Below are positions 1,715 to 56,589 of a DNA stretch of 64,000 bases, piece by piece; the first letter of the stretch is position 1, and every line of letters starts with the position of its first letter. This stretch comes from a virus (taxonomy: Duplodnaviria > Heunggongvirae > Uroviricota > Caudoviricetes). The DNA lies in IMG/VR virus record IMGVR_UViG_3300035501_000580. The stretch is one strand, 5' to 3'. A program made the position numbers and the translations under genes. The notes beneath the pieces were generated by a model. The model saw only the letters and a program-made list of their open reading frames with translations. It was not told the DNA's origin and did not search any database.

Positions 1715-1815
1715 ACTTTGTTTTTTATTTACACTACAAAGTTACTGGTTTTTTTCAACATATCCAAATAAACTGTGCTAAAAAAAATGTTAAAAATTTC
1801 ATTAGCACAGTCTAC
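1715..1815 (-). promoter_or_regulatory. conserved promoter unit (Bacteroidetes -33/-7 type)
   Basis: tacactacaaagttactgg ... shared with >=11 other copies. Confidence 0.6.
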
Positions 1816-2326: not shown

Positions 2327-4471
2327 TTAATTTTCGTTGTTAAACATTCTATAAAATTTACTTGACTTGGCTTCCTCTTCGGTCTTGAAATAATTACCAG
2401 AGTTATATAGTCTTTCTACTCTTGGTTTGACATCATATTCCTCATCACCATAGTCTTGTTCACTTCTGACTATTCCATCAGCATCTACATAATAAAATTC
2501 TCCATCATAAGCTCGCCACTTTGGACAAACATATTTAGACCAATCTCGTTCTGTGTGACTTGGGAAAAGGATACACTCATTATCTTCATATCCTTGGAGT
2601 GTACCATCTTCATTTAACAACAATCTGGATGACAGTTCCATGTTCGGATTAGTGAAGATTGATATGGTTGTTTCATTAGTTACTTTTCTGATACTTCCAA
2701 ATCTTACATATCCAAAACAGGGCGAATATAACTTGGTTCCCTTGGGTGTTCCATTCAATATCTTGGCAATGTTGATGCCTGTTGTTTTCCAGAATAATGG
2801 ATTTTCATCATCTTCAAAGAACTCATCACACCACAAATAATCATTGGCTTCCTTTGTGAAATAATTACCTTGTTCTGTGACCGACGTAATTGTTAACTCT
2901 TGTCCACAATACTGAGTCATTTTTTTACAGAACCAAATATGTCCGGAGGGTTGATCGATGGCGATATCTCCTATTTCTGTCTTAGCGGATTTATCATACC
3001 ATTCCTTGGATTTTACTCGAACAACATCACCAATTTTATGTTTCGGTTTGACTTCTTCCTTGACCTCAAATTCCGGTTTATCTACGGCTGAGTTAGTATC
3101 ACAGTCAACTTCAATGTCATCAACATCATCAAATATTTCCTCATCCTCATCAACTAAGTCAAAGAACTCATCAGACCAAATGAAATACTGACTATCTTCC
3201 TCCATGAAATAATCACCATTACAGTCGATTGCTTTGATGGTCATTACTTGGTCACAATACTCCTTCATCTCTTGGGTAAAACAAGCATATCCAATTCTAG
3301 TAGGAACAACAACATCACCTAAACCTGACAATTTTCCCTTGGACATTTCATTGAACCATTCCTTGTCATGTATCTTTACCTTGTCACCGATTTTGAACTG
3401 AGGGTAAACGATAATGTCTTCAACACCCCCTTCAAAGAAATCAGGTGCCCAGTCATAATTAAGATCATCTTCCTTCAGTCGGTAGTTTCCATCAGTGTAG
3501 TATGTTTCTTCTTGGATGGTCATTTCCCTTCCACAATACTGAGCCATGTCCTTGGTGAAGTAAAATTTTAGTCCACCTCGTTCCTTGATAAATCCACCAC
3601 ACTCATCTTTCGTCTGTCGTGAAAACCAATCCCAATCTTTAATAGTTACTTTATCACCGGGTGAGTATTTCTTGGCTACCTTTACACACACTTTAATCTT
3701 ATCACCAACGGAATCAAAAAACTTGTCTGACCAAAGGTAATCCTCATCAACACCATCAAGAGTATAAACACCAGACTTAACTCCATTGATTTTCATTATT
3801 TGTCCACAGTAATCATACATCTTCTCCGGAAATTTATATTGAATTCCATCATCCTCGAACTCAACATCACCTTCATTATTGTGGGGCAACAAGTCAAACC
3901 ATTCCTCGGACTTTACCTTGACAACATCTCCTACTTTATATCTTTCGTAATTCGTGTCGTCAGCTAAGTCAAAGAAAGCGGGAGACCAAATGAAATCCAA
4001 CATATCCTCCTTAAGATAATAACCTCCATCTTCAGCTTCCTGTTGAATTGTCATTACTTGTCCACAATACACACTCATCTTCTTGGTGAAATAAACCTCA
4101 TGGTCATCTTCTTCACCAACATAAGCTACTACATCCCCATCAATATCCTTGGGTTGATTAGCGAACCATTCAATAGATTTGATTCGCACCTTTTGACCTT
4201 TTTTATATTCCATCTCTTTTACGTATTCATCAAAAAATCGGTCTATCCAACAAAAATATCCATTATCCTCAGCTAAGTGATATAGACCATTATTTAGCAC
4301 TTCACTGATTGTCATTTTCTTCCCACAATATTCACTCATGGGTCGAAGAAAATAAAGGTTGTTGTTTTGTGAATTAAACTTAAACGGTATGTCACCACTA
4401 TTATCTTTTTGTTGTTCATACCATTCCTTGGACTTAATTCTTACTACATCTCCTACTTTATACTCAGCCAT
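2327..4471 (-). CDS. tandem-repeat protein (714 aa) with six ~95-aa repeats (K.GD.V.IKS.EWF ... YCGQ.MTI ... W.D.FF) plus a distinct C-terminal domain
   Basis: repeats visible directly in the translation; C-terminal ~120 aa paralogous to C-terminus of ORF 4474..4986. Confidence 0.7.
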   Translation of the reverse strand: MAEYKVGDVVRIKSKEWYEQQKDNSGDIPFKFNSQNNNLYFLRPMSEYCGKKMTISEVLNNGLYHLAEDNGYFCWIDRFFDEYVKEMEYKKGQKVRIKSIEWFANQPKDIDGDVVAYVGEEDDHEVYFTKKMSVYCGQVMTIQQEAEDGGYYLKEDMLDFIWSPAFFDLADDTNYERYKVGDVVKVKSEEWFDLLPHNNEGDVEFEDDGIQYKFPEKMYDYCGQIMKINGVKSGVYTLDGVDEDYLWSDKFFDSVGDKIKVCVKVAKKYSPGDKVTIKDWDWFSRQTKDECGGFIKERGGLKFYFTKDMAQYCGREMTIQEETYYTDGNYRLKEDDLNYDWAPDFFEGGVEDIIVYPQFKIGDKVKIHDKEWFNEMSKGKLSGLGDVVVPTRIGYACFTQEMKEYCDQVMTIKAIDCNGDYFMEEDSQYFIWSDEFFDLVDEDEEIFDDVDDIEVDCDTNSAVDKPEFEVKEEVKPKHKIGDVVRVKSKEWYDKSAKTEIGDIAIDQPSGHIWFCKKMTQYCGQELTITSVTEQGNYFTKEANDYLWCDEFFEDDENPLFWKTTGINIAKILNGTPKGTKLYSPCFGYVRFGSIRKVTNETTISIFTNPNMELSSRLLLNEDGTLQGYEDNECILFPSHTERDWSKYVCPKWRAYDGEFYYVDADGIVRSEQDYGDEEYDVKPRVERLYNSGNYFKTEEEAKSSKFYRMFNNEN

Positions 4472-5390: not shown

Positions 5391-5892
5391 TTTTCAGAAA
5401 GTTATAAAATTCAACATTAAATCCTATCACTCTCGCATGTGCTAAGTCACGATAATAAGTGTAATTTTTAATAGCACTCACGAGGTTTTCATTCATCCCT
5501 TCAAAATCATGCTGGAGTCCAAGAACACGTAGAACTTCCAATGACTGATAAATTTCTTCAAACTCATCAAGAACCTCACAAACACATTCGAGGTTGAGGT
5601 CTTGATACATTCCTTCCTTAACAGAACCGAACACATCTTTATATACATTTTTATATGTAGTGTCTAACTCTGCTTTTCTTTTCATAAGGGTGGTGATAAT
5701 CTGTGTGAACCGGGTGACAAAATTACCCCATTCAAATGTCAACAACACACCACTGATGATTGACACATCCTGAGCTTGACGTTTCCTACCATATAAACAA
5801 CTATTAACACAGGTAGCGAATGTCATGTCAGTTTTAGAAGCCAACTCAAAGATAGAGTCAATTAATTTTTTATTTACAGTATTCATATCCAA
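5365..5892 (-). CDS. hypothetical protein (175 aa)
   Basis: ORF in overlapping operon. Confidence 0.5.
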   Translation of the reverse strand: MDMNTVNKKLIDSIFELASKTDMTFATCVNSCLYGRKRQAQDVSIISGVLLTFEWGNFVTRFTQIITTLMKRKAELDTTYKNVYKDVFGSVKEGMYQDLNLECVCEVLDEFEEIYQSLEVLRVLGLQHDFEGMNENLVSAIKNYTYYRDLAHARVIGFNVEFYNFLKNGNTSNHA

Positions 5893-6404
5893 AATCCTTT
5901 TAATACGTCGTTAACTAAATAATCTCGGTCATCTATTTTGTTGAGGTCACGTTTCATATCTTTAATAACCCATGACCAACTTTCCCTAAACGATACGAAA
6001 TTGTTCGCTGTCATTAGGTCAAGTAACTTAGCGATGTCCATTACATTCACATCTTTGAAGTTATAATCATTGTCCATTGGGATTAATTTACCAACTTCAT
6101 GTTCTACCAATGATGTGTAGGTTTTATCCTCATCACAACAGAGTTTATAGATTAACTTTTGTGTGATTAAGGAAGCCGCGATATGTTCAGAAAGAGTGAA
6201 ATAATCGGGGTCATACTCAAGGATATGTTGTTTCTCCTTGTGAGTATTGTAAATCATATCCAAAATCTGAGCTAAGTCTAAGATATGTTTTGGATAGAAT
6301 TCCTCCGTACATACTCTCGAAAAGGAATAACCCTGATAGACGACGAGTTTCTTAGTGATTAACTCATCCAAGGTGTTTGATATTTGTGACTTGTTCATTG
6401 TCAT
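5883..6404 (-). CDS. hypothetical protein (173 aa)
   Basis: ORF; conserved promoter unit at 6417-6470 just upstream in minus sense. Confidence 0.55.
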   Translation of the reverse strand: MTMNKSQISNTLDELITKKLVVYQGYSFSRVCTEEFYPKHILDLAQILDMIYNTHKEKQHILEYDPDYFTLSEHIAASLITQKLIYKLCCDEDKTYTSLVEHEVGKLIPMDNDYNFKDVNVMDIAKLLDLMTANNFVSFRESWSWVIKDMKRDLNKIDDRDYLVNDVLKGFWI

Positions 6405-6416
6405 TTGTTTTTTGAT

Positions 6417-6470
6417 TACACTACAAAGTTACAGGTTTTTCTCGACCTCTCCAAATAAAAACAGCTAATT
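6417..6470 (-). promoter_or_regulatory. conserved promoter unit
   Basis: gattacactacaaagttacaggttttt ... ctccaaataaa. Confidence 0.6.
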
Positions 6471-10336: not shown

Positions 10337-11248
10337 TCAATATTTTTTTTCTTCATTCATAAAATAGTCGATACGGTTTTTGATAGCCGTTCTGAGTAGA
10401 GGTATCTTCTCCAATTTCTGATGTTTAACGATGTCGAGATAAAGTTTGAGAAGTTCGGGTTCATCACTAATTCTAACAGTGGCACCCATTACACCACCCT
10501 TCCAAGAATCCCGATTGACGCCAAGTTCAGTGTCAGATTGGAATTCGAGGTCAACATTTATTTTCTTACAATAATTACCAAGACCTATTTTATTGAGGAA
10601 GGGCACTGACCATTCCCATTGTTCAATCCACCAACGGATACGGGAAACATCTTGAACTGTGTCATTCTTCATACGGTAGGTGGTATTCAATCTAACATCA
10701 ACAAGAGGATAATCATTAATGTCATCTAATTGTCTTTTCTCAACTAACGTCTTATTATTAAAGTCGATTATCCAAGAGTTATCATAGTGGGTTGCTTTGA
10801 AAGGGTTAGAAAAAGTACGGTTACGCCATCTAAAATCAGTCCACCATTTTTCACCATTGATAGAATCCCAACCCCAAGAGTATGAAATAGAAGCATAGTC
10901 AAGACCTGTATTCTCATTGAAGTCATTACCCCATTGCCAACACAAGACACAACCACCAAAATAGATTAGAATTTTGTGAGCCCATTTACAGTCGGTATAA
11001 ACTCCATGATGTGTATAATAAATCATAAGACTGGGGTTGTTATAAAATCCAATATAACCTCGATAGTTTTTGAATTCCTTGACCAGTTCACGATCATTAT
11101 ATTTCTTTCTGTAATACTCTGATATTTCCAATCCCAAAAAATGAAGGATATAAGGAAGTATTAAAATTGCTAAGATAATTAAAACAAATGTTATCATAAT
11201 TAAACGTGTATTATTTCTATTTCCGGAGCGTCTTTGAAATGTTCCCAT
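10337..11248 (-). CDS. Trp-rich membrane-anchored protein (303 aa)
   Basis: N-terminal TM segment IMITFVLIILAILILPYILHFLG; many W residues. Confidence 0.5.
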   Translation of the reverse strand: MGTFQRRSGNRNNTRLIMITFVLIILAILILPYILHFLGLEISEYYRKKYNDRELVKEFKNYRGYIGFYNNPSLMIYYTHHGVYTDCKWAHKILIYFGGCVLCWQWGNDFNENTGLDYASISYSWGWDSINGEKWWTDFRWRNRTFSNPFKATHYDNSWIIDFNNKTLVEKRQLDDINDYPLVDVRLNTTYRMKNDTVQDVSRIRWWIEQWEWSVPFLNKIGLGNYCKKINVDLEFQSDTELGVNRDSWKGGVMGATVRISDEPELLKLYLDIVKHQKLEKIPLLRTAIKNRIDYFMNEEKKY

Positions 11249-12756: not shown

Positions 12757-12786
12757 GATTTTAATGTTTTAGAAATTTTACAATAA

Positions 12787-12861
12787 ATTTAATTTGTGAC
12801 TTCGGTGGGGATCGAACCCACGACCTTCCAGTGTTTAACCAGACGCTCTACCAGCTGAGAC
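12787..12861 (-). tRNA. tRNA, atypical (75 nt; anticodon arm TCTGG/TTAAACA/CTGGA, nominal anticodon AAA; irregular D-arm)
   Basis: reverse complement folds with 7-bp acceptor and T-arm GTGGG-TTCGATC-CCCAC; anticodon arm identical to tRNA at 13197..13268. Confidence 0.55.
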
Positions 12862-12961
12862 GTACGAAGTCAATCAATGCTATCTCACGACATGATGATT
12901 ATTTGTGTGTAAAAATTTAAATTCTATAAGAATAATTTAAAAAAATTAGTAAAAAACTCTG

Positions 12962-13034
12962 TGACTCCGGTGGGGCTCGAACCCACGACCCACTGATTAA
13001 GAGTCAGTTGCTCTACCAACTGAGCTACGAAGCC
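12962..13034 (-). tRNA. tRNA-Lys(CTT)
   Basis: cloverleaf: D-arm GCTC-AGTTGGTA-GAGC, anticodon loop CTCTTAA, T-arm GTGGG-TTCGAGC-CCCAC. Confidence 0.85.
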
Positions 13035-13196
13035 TAATCAATCATGTCTCACGACATGATGATTTTCTCTCTCTCACTTAATAAATAATTTATTTATAAA
13101 TCAAAAACTTATATACAATGAAAAAAAAATAATGTACTAAAAAAAAACACTTACTATGGTTATGTCTCACGACATAAAAGCATCAAATGAAAAAGT

Positions 13197-13268
13197 AACT
13201 CCGATGGGACTCGAACCCACGACCTTCCAGTGTTTAACCAGACGCTCTACCAACTGAGCTACGGAGTT
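13197..13268 (-). tRNA. tRNA, canonical 72-nt cloverleaf but anticodon loop TTAAACA (nominal anticodon AAA, C at position 37)
   Basis: perfect D- and T-arms; anticodon stem needs two G.U pairs; isotype uncertain (Phe-like?). Confidence 0.65.
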
Positions 13269-13460
13269 TAATCAGTCTATCTCACGACATGATGATTATT
13301 TAATGTGTAAATTTTAAACAACTTTAAAAATATCAATTAAAACTCATTTGTTATGGTCATGTCTCACGACATGATAATTAAATCAAAAACTTATATAATA
13401 TTAAAAATATAGTAATATGAAAAAAATGTAATAAAAAAGCATTTCAACAAAATTCTTAGG

Positions 13461-13545
13461 AACTCAGGAGGGACTCGAACCCTCGTCGCATGGGTTTCAA
13501 TAAAGAAATTCAACATAGCTCGACCAACTGAGACTTACTGAGTTC
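13461..13545 (-). tRNA. tRNA-like gene (84-85 nt) with good acceptor and T-arm but no canonical anticodon stem
   Basis: AACTCAG/CTGAGTT acceptor, T-arm GAGGG-TTCGAGT-CCCTC; central region does not fold as standard anticodon/variable arm. Confidence 0.45.
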
Positions 13546-13700
13546 TCCATGAAGGGACTATTCGCGAAAAAGTCCCAGACCAAAGACGTCTCTTTGGGGT
13601 TCTTCAATCTTAGAGCTCGGTCAGATTGAAGGAATGTCTCTTCCAAAAGGTGATCTAATGTGTACCATAACCTTTTAATTTTTGTATTAACAAGAACCTA
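13546..13700. ncRNA. candidate structured RNA (three strong hairpins) adjoining the tRNA-like gene
   Basis: hairpins gggact-N11-agtccc, ccaaaga-cgtc-tctttgg, tcaatct-N12-agattga; no ORF. Confidence 0.3.
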
Positions 13701-13784
13701 AGATAATTACACTTCATTTATAAATTCTTGATATGAATTGCGGTGAGGTTCTTTACAATTTATATATAACAAATTCAAAAAACT

Positions 13785-14117: not shown

Positions 14118-14134
14118 TGTTTCTTGTTTTAGAG

Positions 14135-14425
14135 AGTTAAACTTTGTTTTTGTTTTACATTACAAAGATACTTGATTTTTTCGACCTGACCAAATTTTAA
14201 GTGTTAAAAATTTGTTAAATCTTTTTTCAATCATCTTGTGTAATGTTGTTTTTAATTACACTACAAAGATACTTGATTTTTTTGACTTGACCAAATTTTA
14301 AGAGCTAAAAATTTGTTAAATCTTTTTTCAATCATCTTTTCAATGTTCTTTTTGTTTTACACTACAAAGTTACAGGTTTTTTATAACATCTCCAAATTTT
14401 AAGTGCTAAAACTTTGTTAAAAATC
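14135..14425 (-). promoter_or_regulatory. three tandem copies of the ~70-bp conserved promoter unit (Bacteroidetes-type -33 TTTG / -7 TAnnTTTG)
   Basis: minus-sense reading gives AAATTTGG-N19-TAACTTTG/TATCTTTG then TAGTGTAA; three near-identical copies in series. Confidence 0.7.
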
Positions 14426-15002
14426 AAATGAAGTCCAAAAGGGTTACATTTGAGGTGGGTTCAATAGTTTCGTTTTTTCGTTTCGCATAGAACCAAGGGA
14501 TAAGTTTCTCATACCATCGAGAATCTTTTTGGTCTGTTGCTGAGATAATAGACATATCAGTGAAATCAGGTGAACCAACATATACCTTCTCATTATCAAA
14601 CTTACGTCTACAACCAAGCAAGTGAACATTATTTCTAAAATATCTACTTGTGAATTCCTTACATAGTTTAATGAATTCCACTTCTTGTATTAATGACGCC
14701 TTTTTTGTATCGAGGGTGAGAATGATGTAATAATCGGTATCTTTATCACCAAAGTTGTCTATCTTATTAATAGTGTGTAGTGTGAATACTCTGGGATTAT
14801 AACTTTTGGTTTCATATATCCCATCACAGACAGATACATTACCATGATCATCAAATCGGACATTAATATCAAGAACTCTAATACCTTCTTTGAGTTGTTG
14901 TCCTAAGTCCTTACTTTGGTGTTTATACATTGGAGTAAGAAACCACATCCACCATTTCTTAGGTGTGATATAACTTAATGATTTATGACTTCCTAATATC
15001 AT
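14424..15002 (-). CDS. hypothetical protein (192 aa)
   Basis: ORF. Confidence 0.5.
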   Translation of the reverse strand: MILGSHKSLSYITPKKWWMWFLTPMYKHQSKDLGQQLKEGIRVLDINVRFDDHGNVSVCDGIYETKSYNPRVFTLHTINKIDNFGDKDTDYYIILTLDTKKASLIQEVEFIKLCKEFTSRYFRNNVHLLGCRRKFDNEKVYVGSPDFTDMSIISATDQKDSRWYEKLIPWFYAKRKNETIEPTSNVTLLDFI

Positions 15003-15157
15003 GTTGTTTCTAAATTAATTACATGATAAAGATAACAAAGTAAATAGTGATTCACCCTAATTTACTGTTAAAATATAAAAAAATTTGATCAACATCCGTA
15101 TTCATAGAGTATATATTATATGATATAACAAACGGTCTACTGGTGGTGAAATAAAAA

Positions 15158-15216: not shown

Positions 15217-17127
15217 CTATATTTTCAAACCCATAAGATATACATCTAACACATGAGAAAGACCATTTGGTGCATATGTTTTAACTATTTCTGTTCTACT
15301 GGTCATCTTTAGTTTTTCTATCATTTCAGTATTTGGATTTGGGTCTATATATATGATAGGTGTAGTCGATGGAACATAAGTCATTAAATTGGCTGCGGGG
15401 AAAGTTTCTAATGAAGTTCCCACCATTACGAATATGTCACAAGACCTAACCAATTCGATAGCTTCTGTCATTCTATTTACGGTTTCGTGATATAGAGTAA
15501 TCCAAGGTCTCATCTTTGCATTACCATTTGATGTCTGTTTGACTTTTGGGAAATAAGTCCAAACCTTAGCATCTGTTGGTAATCCACAATCTTTATGACT
15601 TTCTGTTGTGTCTATTGTTACAACTCCGGATTGTACATACTTACCATTTACTTTTTTATATTTTGAAACTCCTGCCAATGTTGTTGTTGTTGTGTTATCA
15701 TCTTCGGAAACACTTTTTGTCCAATATGATAAGTCAGCATGGTAGTTTGTATTATCGACATCATCTTCATTGCACATAATCATTAAATTACCATGAAGAT
15801 GTATAAGGTGTTCATCTATGAATTCTTTCGCTGTCATAGATTTTCCAATATTGGTAAATTTCATATATTTATAAAAACCACTATCACTAATTCCATATAT
15901 CGGGGGTTCATATGACGTGTTATAATATCTAAAAAAATAGTCACATAATGCTTTGTCATGTAGGTCATCAATATTCTGAGTAATGATTTTCACATCAAAG
16001 GTATTATGTTTATTTGTTCCTTCACCAATAGTATCATTAATGAATTTATTTATAATTTGATAACCAAGATGCATGGTATTTTTATTAATGTAACTGGCTC
16101 TCAATTCATTAAAAAATCTATTCAAGAAAACAGGGTCAGAATTCCACCCGGATTTTGTCATTATCATATCAATAGGGTTCTCATACCACAAATTACCTTC
16201 TTCCTCACTCTTATATGTATAGATACCATTTTCCTCACTCATACCCGCACCTGTAAAGAAAACAATTCTAACAGGGACTTCACTTGTTTTAATAAGGTCA
16301 TCTTCAGGCCAACCATATTTCTCTAATACTTCCTCAGCTTTAAGAATTAGATAGTTAGCACTTGAATCTGTTCTTGACCATTGTTTATACATTTTCTTTT
16401 TTACTCTATCTCTATCGGTCAAATTTGTTTCATCCTCTGTATGTGTCCAAGTTCCACTATCCCAAGGTTGTTTATATATTCTGGGAAATGTGTGTGTGGT
16501 AAATCGTTTATATTCTTGAAGTGTTTTACCGATACAAGTGTTATAGAATATTCGTCTTTGTGACTTATTCATATTATTTTTCATCGCAACATAAGCCCAG
16601 TGAACATGGGGGTATCTGGCATCCATTACGGGATAATATGTGTATGATGTTCTAAAAGGCGTTAGAGCTTCGGAATCAATCAATGTGAATAATAATGATT
16701 GTATTTCGACAGATATAGATTTGAATTTCTCATTTAGCTCACCTGTTTTTAAATATTGTGGAACATTTTGTGTGGTACTATCATAACTAGCAAGAATAAT
16801 ATTATTATACAGATATAAATCTTCAATTTGTGATATTGTAAGATATGTATTTTGAGTTAAAGATATTGATTTAACACCATTTGGGTGAATTTTTACATCT
16901 TCATTACCATCATACCACCCATCAGTCTCAATTATTCTATTGTTATATACGGGTCTATATACTTGTCGAGTTGTACCATCATCTGAAGTGACAGTAACAA
17001 TTCTACTACCTTTTGGTACATAATAGTTGCCCATCTTATAACAAATTCTATATATTTGTTTATATAGTTTTTGTATTTGACAGGCGGTTTTATAATCTTC
17101 TATAAATTTGTTTTGAAGAAAAGCCAT
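15217..17127 (-). CDS. SIR2-family (sirtuin-like) protein, 636 aa, with ~280-aa unknown N-terminal domain; no zinc-ribbon cysteines
   Basis: motifs TGAGMS (Rossmann GAG.S), TQNIDDLH (QNID.LH), HLHGNL (catalytic HG), VMVGTSLETFPAANL (GTSL.V.P) in correct order. Confidence 0.75.
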   Translation of the reverse strand: MAFLQNKFIEDYKTACQIQKLYKQIYRICYKMGNYYVPKGSRIVTVTSDDGTTRQVYRPVYNNRIIETDGWYDGNEDVKIHPNGVKSISLTQNTYLTISQIEDLYLYNNIILASYDSTTQNVPQYLKTGELNEKFKSISVEIQSLLFTLIDSEALTPFRTSYTYYPVMDARYPHVHWAYVAMKNNMNKSQRRIFYNTCIGKTLQEYKRFTTHTFPRIYKQPWDSGTWTHTEDETNLTDRDRVKKKMYKQWSRTDSSANYLILKAEEVLEKYGWPEDDLIKTSEVPVRIVFFTGAGMSEENGIYTYKSEEEGNLWYENPIDMIMTKSGWNSDPVFLNRFFNELRASYINKNTMHLGYQIINKFINDTIGEGTNKHNTFDVKIITQNIDDLHDKALCDYFFRYYNTSYEPPIYGISDSGFYKYMKFTNIGKSMTAKEFIDEHLIHLHGNLMIMCNEDDVDNTNYHADLSYWTKSVSEDDNTTTTTLAGVSKYKKVNGKYVQSGVVTIDTTESHKDCGLPTDAKVWTYFPKVKQTSNGNAKMRPWITLYHETVNRMTEAIELVRSCDIFVMVGTSLETFPAANLMTYVPSTTPIIYIDPNPNTEMIEKLKMTSRTEIVKTYAPNGLSHVLDVYLMGLKI

Positions 17128-19153: not shown

Positions 19154-19972
19154 AACAATAACGTTTATTTTGTATATGTAGTGTTGGGATTGTTTCTCCC
19201 AACGGCTTTTTCAAAAAAATTAATGGTTGTTTCACAACAACCATTAATAATCACCATCTATTTTCCCCTTTTGTTGTGAAGTGAAAACTTGTTTAGGATT
19301 TTCGGGACTTCACTTATTGAATTTCTACGTTCTCAAAAAAAAAATAAAAATTAACTATAATCTAATCAATCAATCAATATAAGTAAAAAGTCCTCACTTC
19401 AACAATTAAATTTGAAGTCCCAAAATTATAAATACATCCCCATTTCCCAACGATGATGTATTATGTCTCATCTTTTCCATTTGTGTCTTTCGTTGGATAC
19501 CCCTCCAACTTCCCACATCCTCAAAACCTCAGTTATCAATCACAGACTGCAATAAGATTTCTCCGCGAGCCAACTTGAGGTTAAGACACATTCCCCAAGT
19601 AAATAGTATGTTAAAAGAAAACAATTTAGGTGTTGTCTATTAACTTCCTGATTCATTCTACCTTGACTTTCGGTAGTCCACAGGCTTAAAATCGGCGGTA
19701 CTTCAACCTATCGTATACACTCTTAAAGTTCATTCACTTTAATTGGATACATATTAAATATAACAAAAATCTTTCAATATTGTTTTTGAGTTGTTGTTCT
19801 CTCAAAAACCTTACATATTAAATATAACAAAGAAGTTAGATTTTTGTCAAATTGAACTCAAATTTTTTCTATTTGTATCATCTTTGTGTAGATATTTATG
19901 AAAAAAAATTTCACAAATTTTGTCAAATTTTTTACAACAATTTTACAATTTTGTTACAACCATGTCAAAAGG

Positions 19973-23110: not shown

Positions 23111-23593
23111 TTAAATATTTGATTCAAAAATTTTATTCAAGTCTTTTTTGAACGTACGATTATATTTCGTGTTCCAACTTTGATTCCAGTCACCATCACG
23201 ATATACCTTTCGTAGTTCTTTGGCGGTGGATTGTCTTTTTATTCTGGCTAATCCTCGACCAAACATAACAGTGTATTTTATTTCACCACCAATGACGACA
23301 TTTTTATTACCAACACGAACAGAGATACCAACATGATAGCAAAGACCATCATAAACGATTTCACTAAGTGTTGAGGTTTTGATTGATTTCAAACGAGGTG
23401 CCCAGACAATAATGTTATATGGGATACCCAGTTCTTCGAGATGACGAGCGATTTCAGATGCGGCGAACATACAACCACCATGAAAGAGTTCGTGTTTATC
23501 TTTCCAATAGTTGACCAAATCATCAACTTCTTTGATTATGTCTTTTCTTGTTCTCATATATTGTTTGTTTTGAATTACACTACAAAGATACAA
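23111..23593 (-). CDS. hypothetical protein (160 aa), paralog of 18219..18677
   Basis: shared motif; promoter unit at 23572-23640 upstream. Confidence 0.5.
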   Translation of the reverse strand: MYLCSVIQNKQYMRTRKDIIKEVDDLVNYWKDKHELFHGGCMFAASEIARHLEELGIPYNIIVWAPRLKSIKTSTLSEIVYDGLCYHVGISVRVGNKNVVIGGEIKYTVMFGRGLARIKRQSTAKELRKVYRDGDWNQSWNTKYNRTFKKDLNKIFESNI

Positions 23594-23640
23594 GAAAAAA
23601 TTGAAACCACCAAATATTTTACTAAAAAAAATAACAAAAA
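23572..23640 (-). promoter_or_regulatory. conserved promoter unit (variant)
   Basis: attacactacaaagatacaag ... ccaccaaatatttt. Confidence 0.5.
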
Positions 23641-25092: not shown

Positions 25093-25175
25093 AAAATCTT
25101 TTTTCCTTTTATTAAATTTTGTTTTAATAAGAACTAACGGTTAAAAAACTTACATATTAAATATAACAAACAAAT

Positions 25176-25685
25176 TTATGTTCGTACGACTTTTCGCCGT
25201 AATTTTTCATATTTTTTTATATCCTCATAAGCATTCATTACCCTTTTCCGATACCAATAAGATTTACCATTGTGTAGTTGGATGGCTGTTTTCATTGAAT
25301 AATCCGGGTTGTGGGCTTTCTGCATAAGGTCAAATATTTCATAGGCTGAGTCAAAACTGAGGACATCGTTCATACTGTAATTTGTATTGTGAACTCGATT
25401 TACCTCATTAACATAGACTGGAGTGATTTGAAAATAACCTTTTGCACCTTTTGAGGATACCTGTGTTGAGTCATATTCACTTTCAACCTTCATCAGAGCC
25501 ATAGTGAACATATTCCAATCAGACATTTGGTCATCAGATTCCTTTATATTATTTTCTTGACCTAAAGAAACCGTTTCCACTGTGTTTTCTTGGTTAGTTG
25601 GTCTAAGGAGAAAATAGAGAGTGAAAACGGTATTAAAAAATAGGGAAATAATAAATAGAAATCTTTGCAATCGCAGAAGATTCAT
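25176..25685 (-). CDS. lytic transglycosylase (SLT domain), N-terminal membrane anchor, 169 aa
   Basis: VESEYDSTQVSSKGAKGYFQI matches ES-N8-S.AGA.G.MQ SLT catalytic motif. Confidence 0.7.
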   Translation of the reverse strand: MNLLRLQRFLFIISLFFNTVFTLYFLLRPTNQENTVETVSLGQENNIKESDDQMSDWNMFTMALMKVESEYDSTQVSSKGAKGYFQITPVYVNEVNRVHNTNYSMNDVLSFDSAYEIFDLMQKAHNPDYSMKTAIQLHNGKSYWYRKRVMNAYEDIKKYEKLRRKVVRT

Positions 25686-25746
25686 ATTAAATATAACAAA
25701 TTTTTTTTGGTTTTCATCCTAACCAATTATCAGTCAGGATTCTCAC

Positions 25747-26901: not shown

Positions 26902-27177
26902 TTAAACTTCTGCTTCTTCTTCAAGTGGTTGAATAGATTTGATTTCCACCACTGAACTTGGGTGGTAGCATCGCCAGTCACAACGGTCGATGTCCCAGTA
27001 AGAGTTGAAACCATATTCACCCGGACCATAACCACCTTGTGGGCGGTAGTTTTGTTCGGAGATGTATTCAGGGTCTGTGGTACCCTTAGCTTCTCGGAGT
27101 TCACCATTCTTTTTGACGTAGGTGAAAGTAACGATTGACGTTTGGAGAGCTTTACGGAGTTGTTGAAGGGTTGTCAT
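26902..27177 (-). CDS. hypothetical protein (91 aa)
   Basis: ORF directly downstream (minus sense) of promoter unit 27195-27290. Confidence 0.5.
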   Translation of the reverse strand: MTTLQQLRKALQTSIVTFTYVKKNGELREAKGTTDPEYISEQNYRPQGGYGPGEYGFNSYWDIDRCDWRCYHPSSVVEIKSIQPLEEEAEV

Positions 27178-27194: not shown

Positions 27195-27290
27195 AGTTAA
27201 ACTTTTGTTTTCTTTTTACACTACAAAGATACTTGATTTTTTTGACCTGACCAAATTTTAAGTGCTAAAAATTTGTTAAATCTTTTATCT
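27195..27290 (-). promoter_or_regulatory. conserved promoter unit
   Basis: tacactacaaagatacttgatttttttgacctgaccaaattttaagtgctaaaaatttgttaaatc. Confidence 0.65.
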
Positions 27291-27302
27291 TATGTAATCC
27301 TA

Positions 27303-27569
27303 TTAAAAAAGGATTCTTTCAAGAAGTGGTCGTTGGGGTGGATATTTAACCAATATATCATCTTCCAATAGATTGAGTAGTTTCTCAGCATGTTCTCTAA
27401 TTGGATGATTCCCATCTCTGGTAGTTAAATCTACTTCACCATCAACCCAACTGAATGGAGGATAAGTCTTGATAGTTTGCCATCCCCACCATCTACGTTT
27501 TTGGATTTTAATGATTTCATAGTCATAATTTCCAGTTGTGTATAAACGATATTTAGTTTTCGTTGCCAT
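27303..27569 (-). CDS. hypothetical protein (88 aa)
   Basis: ORF downstream of duplicated promoter units 27590-27775. Confidence 0.5.
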   Translation of the reverse strand: MATKTKYRLYTTGNYDYEIIKIQKRRWWGWQTIKTYPPFSWVDGEVDLTTRDGNHPIREHAEKLLNLLEDDILVKYPPQRPLLERILF

Positions 27570-27589
27570 AATTTTTTGTTTAGAGAGTT

Positions 27590-27775
27590 AAACTTTTGTT
27601 TTCTTTTTACACTACAAAGATAATTGATTTTTTTGACCTGACCAAATTTTAAGTGCTAAAAATTTGTTAAATCTTTTATCTTTCATCTTGTGTAATGTTG
27701 TTTTTTAATTACAATACAAAGTTACAGGATTCATCTGGTTTCTCCAAATGAATCCTGTTAAAATATTAAAAACAT
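27590..27775 (-). promoter_or_regulatory. two tandem promoter units
   Basis: tacactacaaagataattga ... and ttacaatacaaagttacagg ... ctccaaatg. Confidence 0.6.
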
Positions 27776-34308: not shown

Positions 34309-34929
34309 TTATTTGAGGTGATTTGACAACACCTTATAAAGAGCATTTGATTTTTTCTCAAATTCTTCAATATCAATCATCTCTGGTTCTTCATTCATCC
34401 ATTCTTCTTTGGTTTTCTTTTGGATATTAATGAATTTGTCAGCGATTGTGAGTTGATTAATCAGAGTTTTTGAGTGAGAAATGATAAGAACACCTTTGTA
34501 TTTGTCCTTATTTTCAGTCAAGTAGTCATTGATATATTTACCCCATGACATTTGCATAGAAGCACTCATACCAATTTCAGGTTCATCAAGTACGATATAA
34601 CGGTCATCTGAACAACTAAACAAACCTTTGATTCCATTCATTGTGTTACTTGATGTTGCTACCCAAGATGTGTCACGAAGGAAAACACCACCACCACCCA
34701 TTTCACTATGAAGTCCGGTTCGTTTATCCATAGAAGAATCCGCAACAATCACCTTCTCACCATTGTTCTTTCTTTTGAGGTCAGAAGCAAGGACTTTTCT
34801 AATAAGTGACTTACCTGAACCATTGTCACCTGTAAGGATTGTTACCTTTCCAAGTTCAATCTGTTCAAGAGCATCAACTATATTGTCGAAGGCTTGTTCA
34901 GCATATTCTATGTAATCTTGTTCTGTCAT
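34309..34929 (-). CDS. small ABC/SMC-like P-loop ATPase (206 aa)
   Basis: Walker A GDNGSGKS, Walker B VLDEPEIGMS, H-loop-like ISHS; promoter unit 34940-35010 upstream. Confidence 0.65.
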   Translation of the reverse strand: MTEQDYIEYAEQAFDNIVDALEQIELGKVTILTGDNGSGKSLIRKVLASDLKRKNNGEKVIVADSSMDKRTGLHSEMGGGGVFLRDTSWVATSSNTMNGIKGLFSCSDDRYIVLDEPEIGMSASMQMSWGKYINDYLTENKDKYKGVLIISHSKTLINQLTIADKFINIQKKTKEEWMNEEPEMIDIEEFEKKSNALYKVLSNHLK

Positions 34930-34939: not shown

Positions 34940-35010
34940 TTTTTAATTACACTACAAAGTTACAGGTTTTTTCTAACATCTCCAAATTTTAAGTGCTAAA
35001 AATTTGTTAA
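34940..35010 (-). promoter_or_regulatory. conserved promoter unit
   Basis: -7 box TAACTTTG (rc of 34956-34963), -33 TTTG (rc of 34983-34986), 19-nt spacer. Confidence 0.7.
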
Positions 35011-37952: not shown

Positions 37953-38158
37953 TTTTTATAAATGTGAAGTTGAATTATTAAGATGATATAAACTACAACG
38001 GATCCCCAAGAAAAGAGTGACATTATAAAGTGAAATATCAAATCACGTTGTATGTTTTTGAACCTAAGAGATGATTTTTTGTAATCACTCAATATGATAT
38101 GGATAGTATAAAGTCCAAGACAATATGCTACTAAAATACCTAAAATATATCCTATCAT
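37949..38158 (-). CDS. small 2-TM membrane protein (69 aa)
   Basis: two hydrophobic helices; translationally coupled to upstream NTase (ATGA overlap). Confidence 0.45.
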   Translation of the reverse strand: MIGYILGILVAYCLGLYTIHIILSDYKKSSLRFKNIQRDLIFHFIMSLFSWGSVVVYIILIIQLHIYKN

Positions 38159-39429
38159 TTCTGGTTGAATTTATTTCGTGCATATAACAGGAGGTCATTT
38201 ACCATATCAACAGAAATCTCATCAGGAATAACAGATTTAGATATTTCTTCATCCATTTGAGATTTAAGTTCTGTTAGTTTAGACATCAACTCATCATAAG
38301 TATATTTTCTATTTCTAACATCAAGGAGAAAATCAGCATCAATTCCTCTACGGTCAAGTTTAAGTCCTTCACCCTTAGCTACTTCAATCGCCATAGAAAT
38401 CAGACGGAAACAGTGACACATATTCTTAGCATCATAGAACTTCGCTGAGTTTTCTTTTTCGAGTCCTTCAAGGTTGTTTTCATACCGAGCTTTGTTACGG
38501 TTTTTCTTCCAATCCTCATACTCACGATATTTCTTACAATGTTGTCTATAACCATTTTCATTGTAAGACATATAACAAATAGGTGTAGAACCTTTTAATG
38601 TTTCTGAAAAACGGATTTCATTACTTGAACCCACATTAGAAATGATACCGCAGTGTTTACCAAAAGGAGTTTTAATTTTTTCATAAAGATTTTTCATTAC
38701 CCAAGACCATTTCATTTCGGTCTGGTCAAATTTAGATGTTAAAGTTGTATATACATAGTTCAAGAATTTGTCATTACGATTTTTTTCGTCGGTGAAAAAT
38801 TCTTTTGTGATACCATTTAGTTCAATGTGTTGACCAAAGTCATAGAACACATCAAACATATTAGGCATATTGGGCACATTTACCAATCCACAGTTACTTT
38901 GGTCAAGACCTCGTTCACTGAGCCAAGTTTGAATGTTTTGACTACCCTGTCCCTTAAAAGTATAACAAAAATCGAGGGGAGTCTTTCTAACCATCTTCTC
39001 AATGTCCCAGTGAATTTTCTTATCTTGTCCCTGAGCCTTTTTAATCTGAGACACAGCATAACCACCAAAAGGCATGAAACATTGTTTGGTGATGAATTGG
39101 TCACGATACTTTTTGATATTCGTAATGATGGGGTGTTCATACAAGACCTTATCATCAGGAACGAACAGGGCTTCCAATACAGTGGGGTTAGATGATAGGA
39201 GTAGTCTCATGAACTTACCTATCTCCCACCAACAGGTATCATGTTTCTCATCACAGATTTCATTCTGGTAATCAAAACCAAGGTCAAGAAGTTGATTTGA
39301 GGGAGCGATATAGATACCACCTTCATCAACGTCACTTGTTTCGACATTGGTACCATAGACCTGTGAACCCCTTATGTAACGATATAAGAGAAGTCCTTTA
39401 TCTTCTATGTCTTTGAATGTTAGTTTCAT
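38155..39429 (-). CDS. pol-beta-superfamily nucleotidyltransferase, 424 aa (OAS/cGAS/DncV-like arrangement GS.VYGT-N5-SDVDEG)
   Basis: N-terminal RGSQVYGTNVETSDVDEGGIYI signature. Confidence 0.55.
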   Translation of the reverse strand: MKLTFKDIEDKGLLLYRYIRGSQVYGTNVETSDVDEGGIYIAPSNQLLDLGFDYQNEICDEKHDTCWWEIGKFMRLLLSSNPTVLEALFVPDDKVLYEHPIITNIKKYRDQFITKQCFMPFGGYAVSQIKKAQGQDKKIHWDIEKMVRKTPLDFCYTFKGQGSQNIQTWLSERGLDQSNCGLVNVPNMPNMFDVFYDFGQHIELNGITKEFFTDEKNRNDKFLNYVYTTLTSKFDQTEMKWSWVMKNLYEKIKTPFGKHCGIISNVGSSNEIRFSETLKGSTPICYMSYNENGYRQHCKKYREYEDWKKNRNKARYENNLEGLEKENSAKFYDAKNMCHCFRLISMAIEVAKGEGLKLDRRGIDADFLLDVRNRKYTYDELMSKLTELKSQMDEEISKSVIPDEISVDMVNDLLLYARNKFNQK

Positions 39430-40214: not shown

Positions 40215-40517
40215 TTAGAAATAACTGGGATAATTGTCTGTTGAAATGATTTTTACATCATCTATTGAAATGTTAACATTAGATAATTGTGATTCTTGAC
40301 CATAATCACCAGTATATGACATTTCAATAGATAGATTATTTTTTAGATAATCTTTGATGTATCTATCCAAGAACTGACCGTTTAATGTTTTCCAGTTTTC
40401 ATATGCTGTGTCAAACTGGTCAAGTTTTTGGATGAGTTTAATATTTTCAGTTTTCAAATCAGTCATCTCATTGTTTAGACGTCTGATTTCATCTCGAAGT
40501 TCCTGTTTAGTTTCCAT
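40215..40517 (-). CDS. hypothetical coiled-coil protein (100 aa)
   Basis: ORF downstream of promoter unit 40535-40610. Confidence 0.45.
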   Translation of the reverse strand: METKQELRDEIRRLNNEMTDLKTENIKLIQKLDQFDTAYENWKTLNGQFLDRYIKDYLKNNLSIEMSYTGDYGQESQLSNVNISIDDVKIISTDNYPSYF

Positions 40518-40534: not shown

Positions 40535-40610
40535 AATTACACTACAAAGATACAGGTTTTTTTTCAGTCCTCCAAATTTTAAGTGCTAAAAATTTGTTAA
40601 AGTTTTTGGT
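40535..40610 (-). promoter_or_regulatory. conserved promoter unit
   Basis: attacactacaaagatacaggtttttttt ... ctccaaattttaagtgctaaaaatttgttaaag. Confidence 0.65.
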
Positions 40611-42829: not shown

Positions 42830-43300
42830 TTATCGTCGGCCTCTACCACCGTTATTATGTTGTTGTGTATTCGGTTTCCCCTGTGGTCGGTTGTTAGATT
42901 TATTTTGTCTAACTTGTGGTCGGTTGTTGTGTCGAGGTTGTGTTCTATATTTAGGTTGGTATCCACGAGGCCTATCATAATAATGGTGTCGTGAATGATT
43001 GTAGAAAATCCATCTCTTTACTGGGACAAAATTCCTAATAAAAATACCACTTTGATTATATAGACCTACCTCAATACCACAAGGTAGAAGTTCCCAATAC
43101 ACATTACTTGGAATAGTTCCCACAATGTGATATGAATAAAACCCATCATTCACAAAGGCCGGGTCATTGATAAGTCCGGTGATGACATAATCATAATAAA
43201 CTGGTCGATAATCACTGTCAACACTCTGAGCCACCACACATGATGTCAGTCCAATAAAAGACATCAATAGACAAACTATGAATTTTCGCATTGTCTTCAT
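42830..43300 (-). CDS. secreted/lipoprotein-like protein with Arg/Gln/Asn-rich C-terminus (156 aa)
   Basis: signal peptide, LTSC. Confidence 0.45.
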   Translation of the reverse strand: MKTMRKFIVCLLMSFIGLTSCVVAQSVDSDYRPVYYDYVITGLINDPAFVNDGFYSYHIVGTIPSNVYWELLPCGIEVGLYNQSGIFIRNFVPVKRWIFYNHSRHHYYDRPRGYQPKYRTQPRHNNRPQVRQNKSNNRPQGKPNTQQHNNGGRGRR

Positions 43301-44070
43301 TTATTTAACCATTTATTTTTTAAGTCTTCTCTGTTTTCTTTGTTAGCAATCTCATAAGAAACAATATCCCATACACTTCTGGTATATTCCTGTCCTTCTG
43401 GGTTTACTTTAACTACTTGTGATTTGTAGATGAAACGACCAAACTTTTTATCATCAGAAACCAAATTCCAATCATTTCCAGTCTGTTCCAAACACAACTT
43501 AACTTGTTCATCTGAATTGTGTCCTCTCAGGGTGTTGTGTGAGAGATATGTCTGACAAAACTGATTCTTTGAGTTCTTAATACAATCTATCTGACGGTAT
43601 AAGAACCAAGCTAACATATCATTCTCATTAGGAACAACCCATACCTTACAGTCGAACACATAATCTTTCATTTCAAAGATGTGGTCAAATCTGGGGACAA
43701 GTTTCAACTCATATTCAATCATCAACTTTGTGAAGTATGATGTTGCAATAGAGGGAATGATGGACAAAAGTTTACACATTCTACCATCAAAGGGTACACA
43801 GGTTTCATTAGTGTCTCGAATGACAAGACTAATTTCATCTGATTGAACAAAAGCACCTACACAATTTTGGATATTCTTACATAGATACTTCGCAGTTTTA
43901 TTCATCATCTCAATAAACTGCTCATCAAATGGTTTCTCAAATTTGTTTTTGATTAATGTGGAAAAATTCTTACCATCAATCATAACCATAATGTAACCAT
44001 TTGGAAGAAGTCGATAATCAGTCAGACTTCTGTAATACTCACATTTTTCTTTTAGGGTTCGGAAAATCAT
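43297..44070 (-). CDS. Thg1-like protein (tRNA-His guanylyltransferase family / 3'-5' polymerase), 257 aa
   Basis: RLLPNGYIMVMIDGKNFS ... KPFDEQFIEMMNKTA ... AFVQSDEISLV aligns with Thg1 conserved blocks (RLLPN.WIVVRIDGR.F ... KPND ... GQSDE.S). Confidence 0.7.
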   Translation of the reverse strand: MIFRTLKEKCEYYRSLTDYRLLPNGYIMVMIDGKNFSTLIKNKFEKPFDEQFIEMMNKTAKYLCKNIQNCVGAFVQSDEISLVIRDTNETCVPFDGRMCKLLSIIPSIATSYFTKLMIEYELKLVPRFDHIFEMKDYVFDCKVWVVPNENDMLAWFLYRQIDCIKNSKNQFCQTYLSHNTLRGHNSDEQVKLCLEQTGNDWNLVSDDKKFGRFIYKSQVVKVNPEGQEYTRSVWDIVSYEIANKENREDLKNKWLNK

Positions 44071-47585: not shown

Positions 47586-48125
47586 TTACTTTTTACCACC
47601 AGAATAACCATGATCGATTACATCTTCAATGGCTTCTGTTTCTTCAATCTCAAACTGACCAAGACGATATGATGAAAAGTAGAATAGGTCACTTACTTCA
47701 TCAAAAATTCCACTAATTTCTCTAAGACAATTAGTCGCCTTGATATATGCCTTACGTTTAGCTCGACTCATTGCGATACGATAACCTGTGACATCATTGT
47801 TCTCATCATCAGGAGAAAGAGTTGCCACACCTGTTGACTTAGCTTTCCAAATATTCTTCTTGAAATCTCTCTTATACCCATACTTAGTCAGGATTGTTGC
47901 AATGGGTTCAGGAAGTGTTTTCAAACCAAGATTTTCCAACTCAGCTTCCAGTTTTGTGAATTTGAAACCAGACCATACCGATACAATAGTCCGATTTTCT
48001 ACAGTCTTTTTGGAAATACTCGTGTCATCAAAAGTGAGCTTTATAAATTTATTATCCATATCTTTATAAGTATTAATTATTAAATTACATATTAAACATA
48101 ACAAAAAAAGGATGAAAATGGACAT
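47586..48125 (-). CDS. secreted hypothetical protein (179 aa)
   Basis: signal peptide. Confidence 0.45.
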   Translation of the reverse strand: MSIFILFLLCLICNLIINTYKDMDNKFIKLTFDDTSISKKTVENRTIVSVWSGFKFTKLEAELENLGLKTLPEPIATILTKYGYKRDFKKNIWKAKSTGVATLSPDDENNDVTGYRIAMSRAKRKAYIKATNCLREISGIFDEVSDLFYFSSYRLGQFEIEETEAIEDVIDHGYSGGKK

Positions 48126-53663: not shown

Positions 53664-53753
53664 AAACTTAAATTGTAATTCTACTTCAAAGAACTGTATA
53701 TTAAATATAACAAATAATCTTGATTTCTCTCAGATTTATTGTTTTTTTTTCTG

Positions 53754-56560: not shown

Positions 56561-56589
56561 CTTTCTTAATATTATCAACAAAATCTATA

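Follow-up and report, generated by a model that had tools for sequence, protein, structure and literature searches.

Tandem strong early promoters for the host RNA polymerase, all feeding the same downstream gene or genes, are known from phage T7 (A1, A2 and A3), and the extended-consensus early promoters of T4 and T5, which possess AT-rich upstream enhancer regions, surpass most host promoters in their fit to the consensus. Here we analyze a family of short intergenic repeats in a 64-kb stretch of DNA (64,000 nucleotides, hereafter the window) from an uncultivated virus of the Caudoviricetes, IMG/VR record IMGVR_UViG_3300035501_000580. The window corresponds, in reverse orientation, to roughly 225-289 kb of a 351.6-kb metagenomic contig, and the genome was examined over ~74 kb out of roughly 352 kb. 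The repeated module, hereafter motif 1, is present in 12 copies, three of them in a tandem array at 14120-14432. We propose, with a probability of about 0.8, that it is a promoter cassette read by the host RNA polymerase with its primary sigma factor (sigma-ABfr type).

The closest described parallels for repeated promoter cassettes are the promoter-early stem-loops (PeSLs) of the T4-type phages RB49, phi1, PST and nt-1. In these ~100-bp cassettes an early promoter of the host consensus type is joined to an AT-rich upstream region and a stem-loop; they reside beside genes without known relatives and recombine with one another (PMC2839356, PMC4122927). The modules of the window resemble PeSLs in being repeated units of ~100 bp with a host-consensus promoter, an AT-rich upstream region, downstream genes that are small and mostly without relatives, and chimeric copies suggestive of recombination. 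They differ in the consensus itself, which is of the sigma-70 type in PeSLs and of the Bacteroidota type here, in the stem-loop, which is significant in 1 of 12 copies, and in that no cassette-bounded insertions or deletions were seen between strains; the two systems also share no sequence homology. The cassettes are analogous to PeSLs, not members of that group. It is well established that host-mimicking early phage promoters recur as cassettes, and the present example comes from a little-studied group of huge phages; a search of the searchable literature library for such cassettes in Bacteroidota phages found no description.

Searching the window for TTTGG-N19-TAnCTTTGTAnTGTAA with up to two mismatches yields exactly 12 sites, all on the minus strand, which is the gene strand, versus none in 100 dinucleotide-preserving shuffles. 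These are the 12 copies listed in the earlier note, which had drawn attention to the locus as a reused promoter module. The same module families are recovered by a repeat finder, and the copies are near-identical to each other over 60-111 nt, with a cassette size of ~90 bases. When the looser published consensus TTTG-N18-22-TAnnTTTG is used, the 12 gene-strand matches are exactly the 12 modules, versus about three matches (both strands summed) in simulated sequences. Apart from the modules, the gene strand of the window has no full-consensus site; it contains 19 intergenic TAHHTTTG boxes, 12 of them within modules.

All long open reading frames (ORFs) and all 22 transfer RNA (tRNA) genes of the window lie on the minus strand, so every module copy is co-oriented with the genes. 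Each copy is intergenic and stands at promoter distance from an ATG, as had been claimed; the ATG follows the terminal TGTAA of the module by 11-41 nt, giving predicted leaders of 15-45 nt. At three copies this ATG opens only a 24-codon mini-ORF that runs into the next promoter. Together, the copies head at least nine transcription units, mostly small genes without known relatives: of the downstream ORFs scanned against PHROG and Pfam, 5/10 have no family match and most other matches are weak, although the same scarcity of relatives holds for most of the window. The copies outside the triple array are the following.

1729-1768, minus strand: promoter copy with predicted start 1732 and a 45-nt leader to a 174-aa ORF (1163-1687); it has its own upstream hairpin, CTGTGCTAA/TTAGCACAG
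6416-6455, minus strand: promoter copy with predicted start 6419 and a 15-nt leader to a 173-aa ORF (5883-6404)
23575-23614, minus strand: divergent promoter copy with predicted start 23578 and a 21-nt leader to a 148-aa ORF (23111-23557)
27216-27255, minus strand: type B promoter copy with predicted start 27219 and a 42-nt leader to a 91-aa WYL_2 ORF (26902-27177)
27607-27646, minus strand: type B promoter copy with predicted start 27610 and a 41-nt leader to an 88-aa ORFan (27303-27569)
27709-27748, minus strand: distal promoter of a tandem pair, predicted start 27712, 102 nt upstream of the copy at 27607-27646
34947-34986, minus strand: promoter copy with predicted start 34950 and a 21-nt leader to a 206-aa P-loop ORF (34309-34929)
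40537-40576, minus strand: promoter copy with predicted start 40540 and a 23-nt leader to a 100-aa ORFan (40215-40517)
59000-59039, minus strand: promoter copy with predicted start 59003 and a 40-nt leader to a 44-aa ORF (58829-58963)

The promoters of Flavobacterium johnsoniae described by Baez et al. (PMC6847099) carry a TAHHTTTG box in which T-12, A-11, T-8, T-7, T-6 and G-5 are nearly invariant and G never occurs at -10 or -9. Transcription starts 4-5 nt after this box, AT-rich motifs are found near -18 and -28, and the leaders (33 nt on average) lack a Shine-Dalgarno sequence and favour A at -3 (PMC6847099). In the alignment of the 12 phage copies the invariant columns are the -33 TTTGG, T-12, A-11, C-9, T-8, T-7, T-6, G-5 and TAnTGTAA. 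The -7 element reads TA(A/T)CTTTG in 12/12 copies, fitting TAHHTTTG, and in 12/12 copies a -33 TTTG precedes it with a 20-nt gap (19-21 nt being the expected range). An A-tract occupies about -22 to -17 in most copies, and the -28 region is less clearly AT-rich. The module has every sequence-level property of a Bacteroidota primary-sigma promoter, and the match to the Bacteroidetes sigma-A consensus asserted in the earlier note is borne out.

The similarity extends into the start region. We compiled 29 independent generic promoters from 204 kb of Bacteroidota loci that had not been selected for TAGTGTAA. After TTTG these promoters show C (66%), A (52%), G/A, T (55%), G (41%), G/T, A (62%) and A (62%), that is cAgTGtAA; thus, the TAGTGTAA extension of the phage modules copies the host discriminator and start-site preference. 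The phage copies have T at -4, where the host-preferred base is C. Promoters of the sigma-70 type were rejected as candidates, with 71 such sites in the window versus 92 in shuffles, i.e. fewer than expected. Overall, the modules agree with the sigma-ABfr-type promoters of Bacteroides fragilis and F. johnsoniae (PMC6847099) in the -7 TAHHTTTG, the -33 TTTG with a 20-nt gap, the A/T-rich spacer near -18, the start context (C/T)AGTGTAA and the leaders of ~30 nt without Shine-Dalgarno sequences. They differ from them in being near-identical over 60-111 nt, in their genome-specific 30-nt upstream half, in their tandem arrangement and in the T at -4.

The assignment of the host to Bacteroidota, which the earlier note had drawn from the consensus, now stands on three independent lines, all from sequence. 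Besides the consensus match, the exact 40-nt core pattern occurs in 36 stretches of a species-representative genome collection, 28/36 of which are labelled Bacteroidota. These comprise 13 from Prevotella, Prevotellaceae or Alloprevotella, the remainder being from Bacteroides, Phocaeicola, Muribaculaceae, Porphyromonas, Alistipes, Rikenellaceae, Capnocytophaga and Flavobacteriales. The other 8/36 are on metagenome-assembled contigs that bear the labels of other phyla. Four of these stretches come from two contigs that have phage-like cassettes in multiple copies and are evidently mis-binned phage DNA: JBGVNW010000068.1 (360,293 bp, labelled 'Bacilli bacterium') has at least 20 Bacteroidota-type cassettes in 24 kb, and the second contig has five. 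The third line is the translation-start context, with Shine-Dalgarno-like motifs before only 5/94 genes of the window, below the 9% background, and A at -3 in 56%. Infection of Bacteroidota is well supported by these features, and the shortage of sigma-70-type sites agrees with it. JBGVNW010000068.1 (loci L078, L086 and L087), deposited in a Bacilli metagenome-assembled genome, has tRNA and ORF similarity to the window and most likely represents a mis-binned huge phage of the same broad group.

The INPHARED phage collection contains no close relative of this phage. By protein search and contig look-ups we reached loci with 51-64% helicase identity on contigs of 360-390 kb, which identifies a family of huge phages; the helicase-related loci in viral and metagenome contig collections gave only relatives at 25-28% identity. 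The syntenic relative loci (GC 25-27%) carry TTTGGACATGTCAAAAATnTCCATTAACTTTGTAG(C/T)GTAATTAAAAA, in which core, spacer flavour and leader start are like those of type A in the window. Their core and spacer read TTTGGACATGTCAAAAATnTCCATTAACTTTGTAGyGTAATTAAAAA, and the sequence upstream of -33 is unrelated to that of the window. The copy with predicted start 40540 is followed by a 100-aa ORFan and then by an operon of 204-aa, 58-aa and RlaP genes. Two relatives possess the orthologous operon (34%, 57-62% and 71-72% identity) directly behind a motif-1-like promoter. The promoter at this position has been kept across deep divergence, which argues for function.

On this reading, the host polymerase would contact TTTG at -36 to -33 and TA(A/T)CTTTG at -12 to -5, separated by a 20-nt spacer with an A-tract near -18. 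The first transcribed base would be the G of TGTAA, 5 nt beyond the box, and the resulting leaders would be A-rich, 15-45 nt long and without a Shine-Dalgarno sequence. The AT-rich 30 nt upstream of -33 would act as an UP-like enhancer, and the three tandem copies would fire independently into the gene for a 110-aa winged-helix-like protein. The pattern of small genes, the perfect host-consensus match and the analogy with T4 and T7 suggest that the cassettes are an early promoter class, used before phage takeover.

Several points weigh against this interpretation. The host consensus fails to explain the near-identical 30-nt upstream half in eight copies, or its lineage-specific versions, and the syntenic promoter in two relatives has no clean -33 TTTG. 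No copy of motif 1 directly precedes the candidate anti-defence genes (Acb3-like, SIR2), and motif 1 interleaves along the window with a second motif (motif 2, described below) without forming temporal blocks. Within the ~74 kb examined of the ~352-kb genome only part of the gene content is represented, and the phage may encode a sigma factor of host-like specificity. Observed directly are the architecture of the sequence, the position and orientation of the copies, their conservation in relatives and their match to host genomes; start site, strength, timing and sigma dependence of the cassettes are predictions from the DNA itself.

The triple array and the features associated with it are the following; its start positions were placed by the start-site rule of PMC6847099.

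14120-14432, minus strand: triple tandem array of three 101-bp promoter units, head-to-tail, between the stop of a 192-aa ORF (14424-15002) and the 110-aa ORF
14357-14396, minus strand: distal promoter, spacer type A, with the -33 TTTG at 14393-14396, the -7 box TAACTTTG at 14365-14372 and the predicted start G at 14360
14261-14335, minus strand: 24-codon mini-ORF MIEKRFNKFLALKIWSSQKNQVSL that lies between the distal promoter and the middle one and stops at the TAG inside TTTGTAGTG
14256-14295, minus strand: middle promoter, a mosaic of spacer type B and a type-A-like leader, with the -7 box at 14264-14271 and predicted start 14259
14160-14234, minus strand: second 24-codon mini-ORF, between the middle and proximal promoters
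14155-14194, minus strand: proximal promoter, type B, with the -7 box at 14163-14170, predicted start 14158 and a 41-nt leader containing GTTTAACTCTCTAAA
13785-14117, minus strand: 110-aa ORF behind the triple array, a member of a small family with a predicted winged-helix fold

Each unit of the array carries TTTGG-N19-TA(A/T)CTTTGTA(G/A)TGTAA, and for 14147-14421 Tandem Repeats Finder reports a period of 101, with 85% matches over 2.7 copies. Seven independent metagenome assemblies contain the 306-nt intergenic region with full-length context, either identical or with 3-4 substitutions; one of the seven represents a strain that is only ~96% identical overall. The triple copy noticed earlier is therefore real and not an assembly artefact. 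It resembles T7 A1-A3 in having three co-oriented full-consensus promoters in series (101-bp spacing) before one unit, and differs in that it is probably internal to the genome (in a window at about 225-289 kb of the 351.6-kb contig) rather than at the injected end, consists of true 101-bp repeats and belongs to another sigma family. The three tandem copies may give strong expression. A real peptide gene was considered for the 24-codon mini-ORF and rejected: differences between copies are mostly nonsynonymous (20 versus 6 codon differences), so no peptide-level constraint is seen, and the mini-ORF is probably incidental.

The 110-aa product is without close relatives and belongs to a family of about 23 small proteins, in which R55, H60, P61 and Y89 are invariant. 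AlphaFold2 with the family alignment produced a model with a predicted local distance difference test score (pLDDT) of 86 and a helix-helix-helix-hairpin topology. Foldseek searches of the PDB with this model matched only winged-helix domains (forkhead, the histone H1 globular domain, Fur/Zur and F93 of an archaeal virus), with probabilities of up to 0.99 and weak E-values of 0.02-0.2. The product may plausibly be a small protein that binds nucleic acids and is required in large amounts. In another relative, a tRNA cluster instead of tandem promoters stands before a homologue with 50% identity, so the triple arrangement is not tied to this gene family.

The copies are not uniform along their length. 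The 30 nt upstream of -33 (TTAACAAATTTTTAGCACTTAAAA) are 74-100% identical pairwise in 8/12 copies and have diverged in four (predicted starts 1732, 6419, 23578 and 27712), the core being still perfect in the latter. A search of IMG/VR with the upstream half (TTAACAAANTTTTARCNCTTAAAATTTGG) returned 0 matches, hence this half is specific to this phage. Other lineages have a uniform upstream half of their own, AATAATTATTATTTTGAAAAAAAGTTGCTGAAAAA in a 360-kb contig and TTTTTTCAAAAAAAGTTTAAAAATTG in another, and all of these versions share with host promoters a layout of a GC-containing pentamer, an A-tract and TTTGG. From this layout, the AT-rich 30 nt are most likely an UP-like enhancer. Upstream half, core and leader show different similarity patterns among the copies: the copy with predicted start 14259 joins a type B core and upstream half to a type A leader, and a copy beyond the window joins the upstream half of the 6419 copy to the leader of the 1732 copy. 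Since the three segments are combined differently among copies, cassette recombination is indicated, and the sequences point to cassettes that spread by duplication and recombination among copies.

Some copies also travel in pairs. Three unrelated genes are each preceded by a dual cassette, in which a type A promoter is followed after ~100 nt by a type B promoter whose leader is GTTTAACTCTCTAAA: at the triple array with the 110-aa gene, at the 27712/27610 pair with the 88-aa gene, and at a pair ~8 kb beyond coordinate 1. The third of these precedes a membrane-like protein, also of 110 aa, which was considered as a paralogue of the triple-array gene product and rejected for want of any similarity. 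Each dual-cassette junction contains an ATG-led 24-codon ORF ending in the next -7 box region. Tandem pairs are found at 27712/27610 and also at 19081/19181 of locus L113 and at 2263/2352 of locus L087 in the related contig.

These observations raise the question of whether the cassettes persist mainly as PeSL-like recombination modules that shuffle small genes, which would be compatible with a promoter role. The stretch conserved among them is ~100 bp long, and the 88-aa ORFan at 27303-27569 lies between the copies at 27216-27255 and 27572-27682, which match each other at 97% over 111 nt. The mosaic combinations, the single dual-cassette type before three unrelated genes, the extra 100-aa ORFan between a syntenic promoter and the conserved RlaP operon, and the frequent breaks of assemblies at cassettes are all in keeping with such a role. 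However, no insertions or deletions bounded by cassettes were seen among strain variants at 95-99% identity, neither circular nor recombinant junctions came to light, and the stem-loop is significant in only one copy. We regard recombination as the main reason for the persistence of the cassettes as possible, although clearly less probable than their primary use as host-read promoters.

A stem-loop was also considered as an integral part of the cassette and rejected, being significant in 1/12 copies, with two or three more having a hairpin just upstream. Significant folding is confined to the copy with predicted start 27712 (z-score -6.3, versus -1.9 to +1.2 in the eleven others); its 15-bp hairpin (27724-27758) overlaps -33 and is terminator-like for the upstream unit. 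Directly upstream of the 23578 copy is a canonical terminator hairpin followed by T9.

Unlikely, in our estimate, is a second alternative, in which the cassettes are promoters whose full activity or regulation requires a phage factor (a sigma factor, activator or repressor) that reads TTAACAAATTTTTAGCACTTAAAA; this factor might be the 110-aa product itself, closing a feedback loop. The upstream half is conserved within the genome far beyond what the host consensus needs and differs between lineages. It contains an 8-bp inverted repeat, CAAATTTT-N8-AAAATTTG, that overlaps -33, and a winged-helix DNA-binding fold is predicted for the product of the gene with the most promoter copies. Against this, the four copies that lack the conserved upstream half keep a perfect core, and host promoters with a similar layout of GC pentamer, A-tract and TTTGG suggest that an UP-like element together with recombination suffices. 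The winged-helix call comes with weak Foldseek E-values of 0.02-0.2, and binding is putative. The inverted repeat was rejected as an operator, its arms not being kept complementary by compensating changes in the divergent copies, which leaves a weak possibility. It is highly improbable that the repeats are no promoters at all and represent a miniature mobile element, replication iterons or a small-peptide coding sequence: tandem 101-bp units are superficially iteron-like and a 24-codon ORF is conserved at the junctions, but every copy lies between genes in their orientation, with an ATG at promoter distance, their invariant positions are exactly those of host promoters, the window shows no GC-skew switch, terminal inverted repeats and target-site duplications are absent, and the mini-ORF differences are mostly nonsynonymous.

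The second motif, motif 2 (TTTGTTATATTTAATATGTAA), is also real and may be a promoter class of its own. A position matrix finds 11 sites of motif 2 with at least 21 bits, all intergenic and on the gene strand, versus a best score of 17 in 40 simulations. The core TTGTTATRT occurs 18 times, 17 of them on the gene strand, versus 4.5 expected, so that the earlier estimate of about 15 sites was a fair one. The same source had called the second motif unrelated to the first, which does not hold: motif 2 aligns in register with motif 1 and keeps TAHHTTT and TGTAA, TTTGT + TATATTTA + ATATGTAA in motif 2 corresponding to CCTG + TAACTTTG + TAGTGTAA in motif 1. It departs from motif 1 in that the near-invariant G-5 is replaced by A and the -33 element is missing, and it can also be read as an extended -10-like TGnTATATT. 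A tRNA promoter in a 360-kb relative is a hybrid of the two motifs. The sites of motif 2 include the following.

62983-62999, minus strand: motif 2 (TTGTTATATTTAATATG), 15 nt upstream of a 156-aa ORF
58360-58376, minus strand: motif 2
56827-56843, minus strand: motif 2, upstream of tRNA-Met and a permuted transfer-messenger RNA (tmRNA)
53697-53713, minus strand: motif 2, ~35 nt upstream of tRNA-Glu
48088-48104, minus strand: motif 2, upstream of an IMPDH/GMP-reductase-like gene block; relatives have motif 2 at the equivalent place
25683-25699, minus strand: motif 2, abutting the start of a 169-aa ORF
25153-25169, minus strand: motif 2, upstream of an OmpA-domain ORF
19750-19830, minus strand: motif 2 twice in tandem (64 nt apart), heading an 819-nt stretch free of ORFs
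15022-15038, minus strand: motif 2 variant, before the 192-aa ORF on the upstream side of the triple array
13756-13772, minus strand: motif 2 variant that heads a tRNA-like cluster, immediately after the 110-aa ORF

Thus, motif 2 stands before several protein genes as well as before tRNA clusters, the permuted tmRNA and the 819-nt ORF-free stretch. The motif is also conserved in relatives; there it often comes directly after a hairpin and has an ATG four bases further on, which would imply leaderless mRNAs if the start-site rule holds. Six matches to motif 2 in IMG/VR are all one unrelated single-copy sequence, and an alignment of the regions downstream of the sites for a shared RNA revealed nothing beyond the motif. 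Middle and late promoters of T4 retain the start-proximal element and have the upstream element replaced or absent. Motif 2 is comparable in that it retains the start-proximal box and register, lacks -33, has A instead of G at -5 and gains an adjacent TTTGT. It differs in also driving tRNA clusters, and the host sigma factor is not known to use an extended -10 of the TGnTATATT form. It is a reasonable inference from these features that motif 2 is a second promoter class that needs a modified polymerase or a phage factor.

The two motifs could be united in a broader and decidedly speculative scheme, which we consider doubtful as a whole. Bacteroidota phages of ~350-390 kb, with hosts probably of the Prevotella type, would possess a two-tier promoter code with both classes derived from one architecture. 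The first class would be the host-consensus cassettes, whose upstream half, uniform in each genome, is maybe read by the winged-helix protein overproduced from the triple array, and which serve in addition as PeSL-like recombination modules that place new small genes behind existing promoters. The second class, with box and start-site register unchanged, G-5 changed to A and no -33 element, would be used by a phage-modified polymerase.

Several RNA features accompany the motif 2 sites. The permuted tmRNA at 56395-56585 (minus strand), downstream of a motif 2 site, matches Rfam RF04321 with 60.7 bits (threshold 47). The ARAGORN tmRNA call at this place has the tag peptide GNNFSRPEKVMYAAA, the tmRNA overlaps or abuts tRNA-Met, and a relative encodes SmpB (L051, 15656-16108). 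The tRNA-like cluster at 12757-13784 (minus strand), which follows motif 2 at 13772, contains four tRNA T-arm-like repeats (12795, 12960, 13194 and 13458), beside which the 42-nt TACGAAGTCAATCAATGCTATCTCACGACATGATGATTATTT occurs three times; ARAGORN predicts a tRNA-Lys(CTT) in this cluster together with an odd tRNA-Phe (anticodon AAA), and there is a weak Rfam tRNA match at 12797-12871. The ORF-free stretch of 819 nt at 19154-19972 (minus strand) ends near a terminator-like hairpin (19219-19248). It could be a non-coding RNA; comparison of the stretch with Rfam gave nothing at the gathering threshold. A (C)ACCGCAA-like motif lies 15-30 nt downstream of three motif 2 sites (13740-13755, 56800-56815 and 58330-58345, minus strand).

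With 12 predicted starts and 11 second-class sites, the analysis provides a partial transcription map of an uncultivated ~352-kb phage, whose host phylum could be assigned from sequence alone. The cassettes are compact and apparently very strong Bacteroidota promoters that occur naturally in one-, two- and three-copy versions, which makes them candidate expression parts for Bacteroides or Prevotella. The two related promoter classes make transcription switching in huge Bacteroidota phages accessible to experiment.

Promoters with the same core were also observed in host loci. Rfam scans of the 18 host loci with the best-matching promoters returned nothing relevant, and known RNA genes were not found behind these promoters. 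The loci L060, L080 and L083 (Muribaculaceae and Prevotella) contain several near-identical promoters with an upstream (T)GCTGAAAAA-TTTGGATA, and their leaders include a strong AAAGGAGGTGT Shine-Dalgarno-like sequence, unusual for Bacteroidota; these promoters may belong to a repeated or mobile host element. Many unrelated promoters with the same core, from IMG/VR and host loci, have (T/A)GTTAAA, ATAATTGC or AAAAAGTTG 15-40 nt upstream of -33, which may be a general upstream promoter element of gut Bacteroidota, of which we found no description.

Genes of the window include an NAD-dependent ligase, a PIF1/RecD-like helicase, a Dam-type methylase and an IMPDH/GMP-reductase-like gene, together with SIR2, a weak Acb3-like match, Thg1, RlaP, a CCA-adding/HD enzyme, the 22 tRNAs and the permuted tmRNA. 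RlaP, Thg1, the CCA-adding/HD enzyme and the NAD-dependent ligase (38155-39429, 43297-44070, 63011-63997 and 60434-62326, minus strand) stand beside the large tRNA array, and this set of genes for tRNA and RNA repair and maturation suggests a tRNA pool maintained by the phage itself. Candidate counter-defence or defence-related genes are located at 10337-11248 and 15217-17127 (minus strand); these are the weak match to Acb3, an inhibitor of the cyclic oligonucleotide-based antiphage signalling system (CBASS), and a 636-aa protein with a SIR2 domain. The 714-aa ORF at 2327-4471 (minus strand) has a weak SH3_15 match and about six internal repeats of ~87-90 aa, which were seen as DNA repeat families with spacings of 255-357 nt. 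Finally, two short 23-bp tandem-repeat arrays (TTGTATCCAAGTTTCGATTTCCA and a variant) lie at 54648-54890 in the tRNA-rich region.

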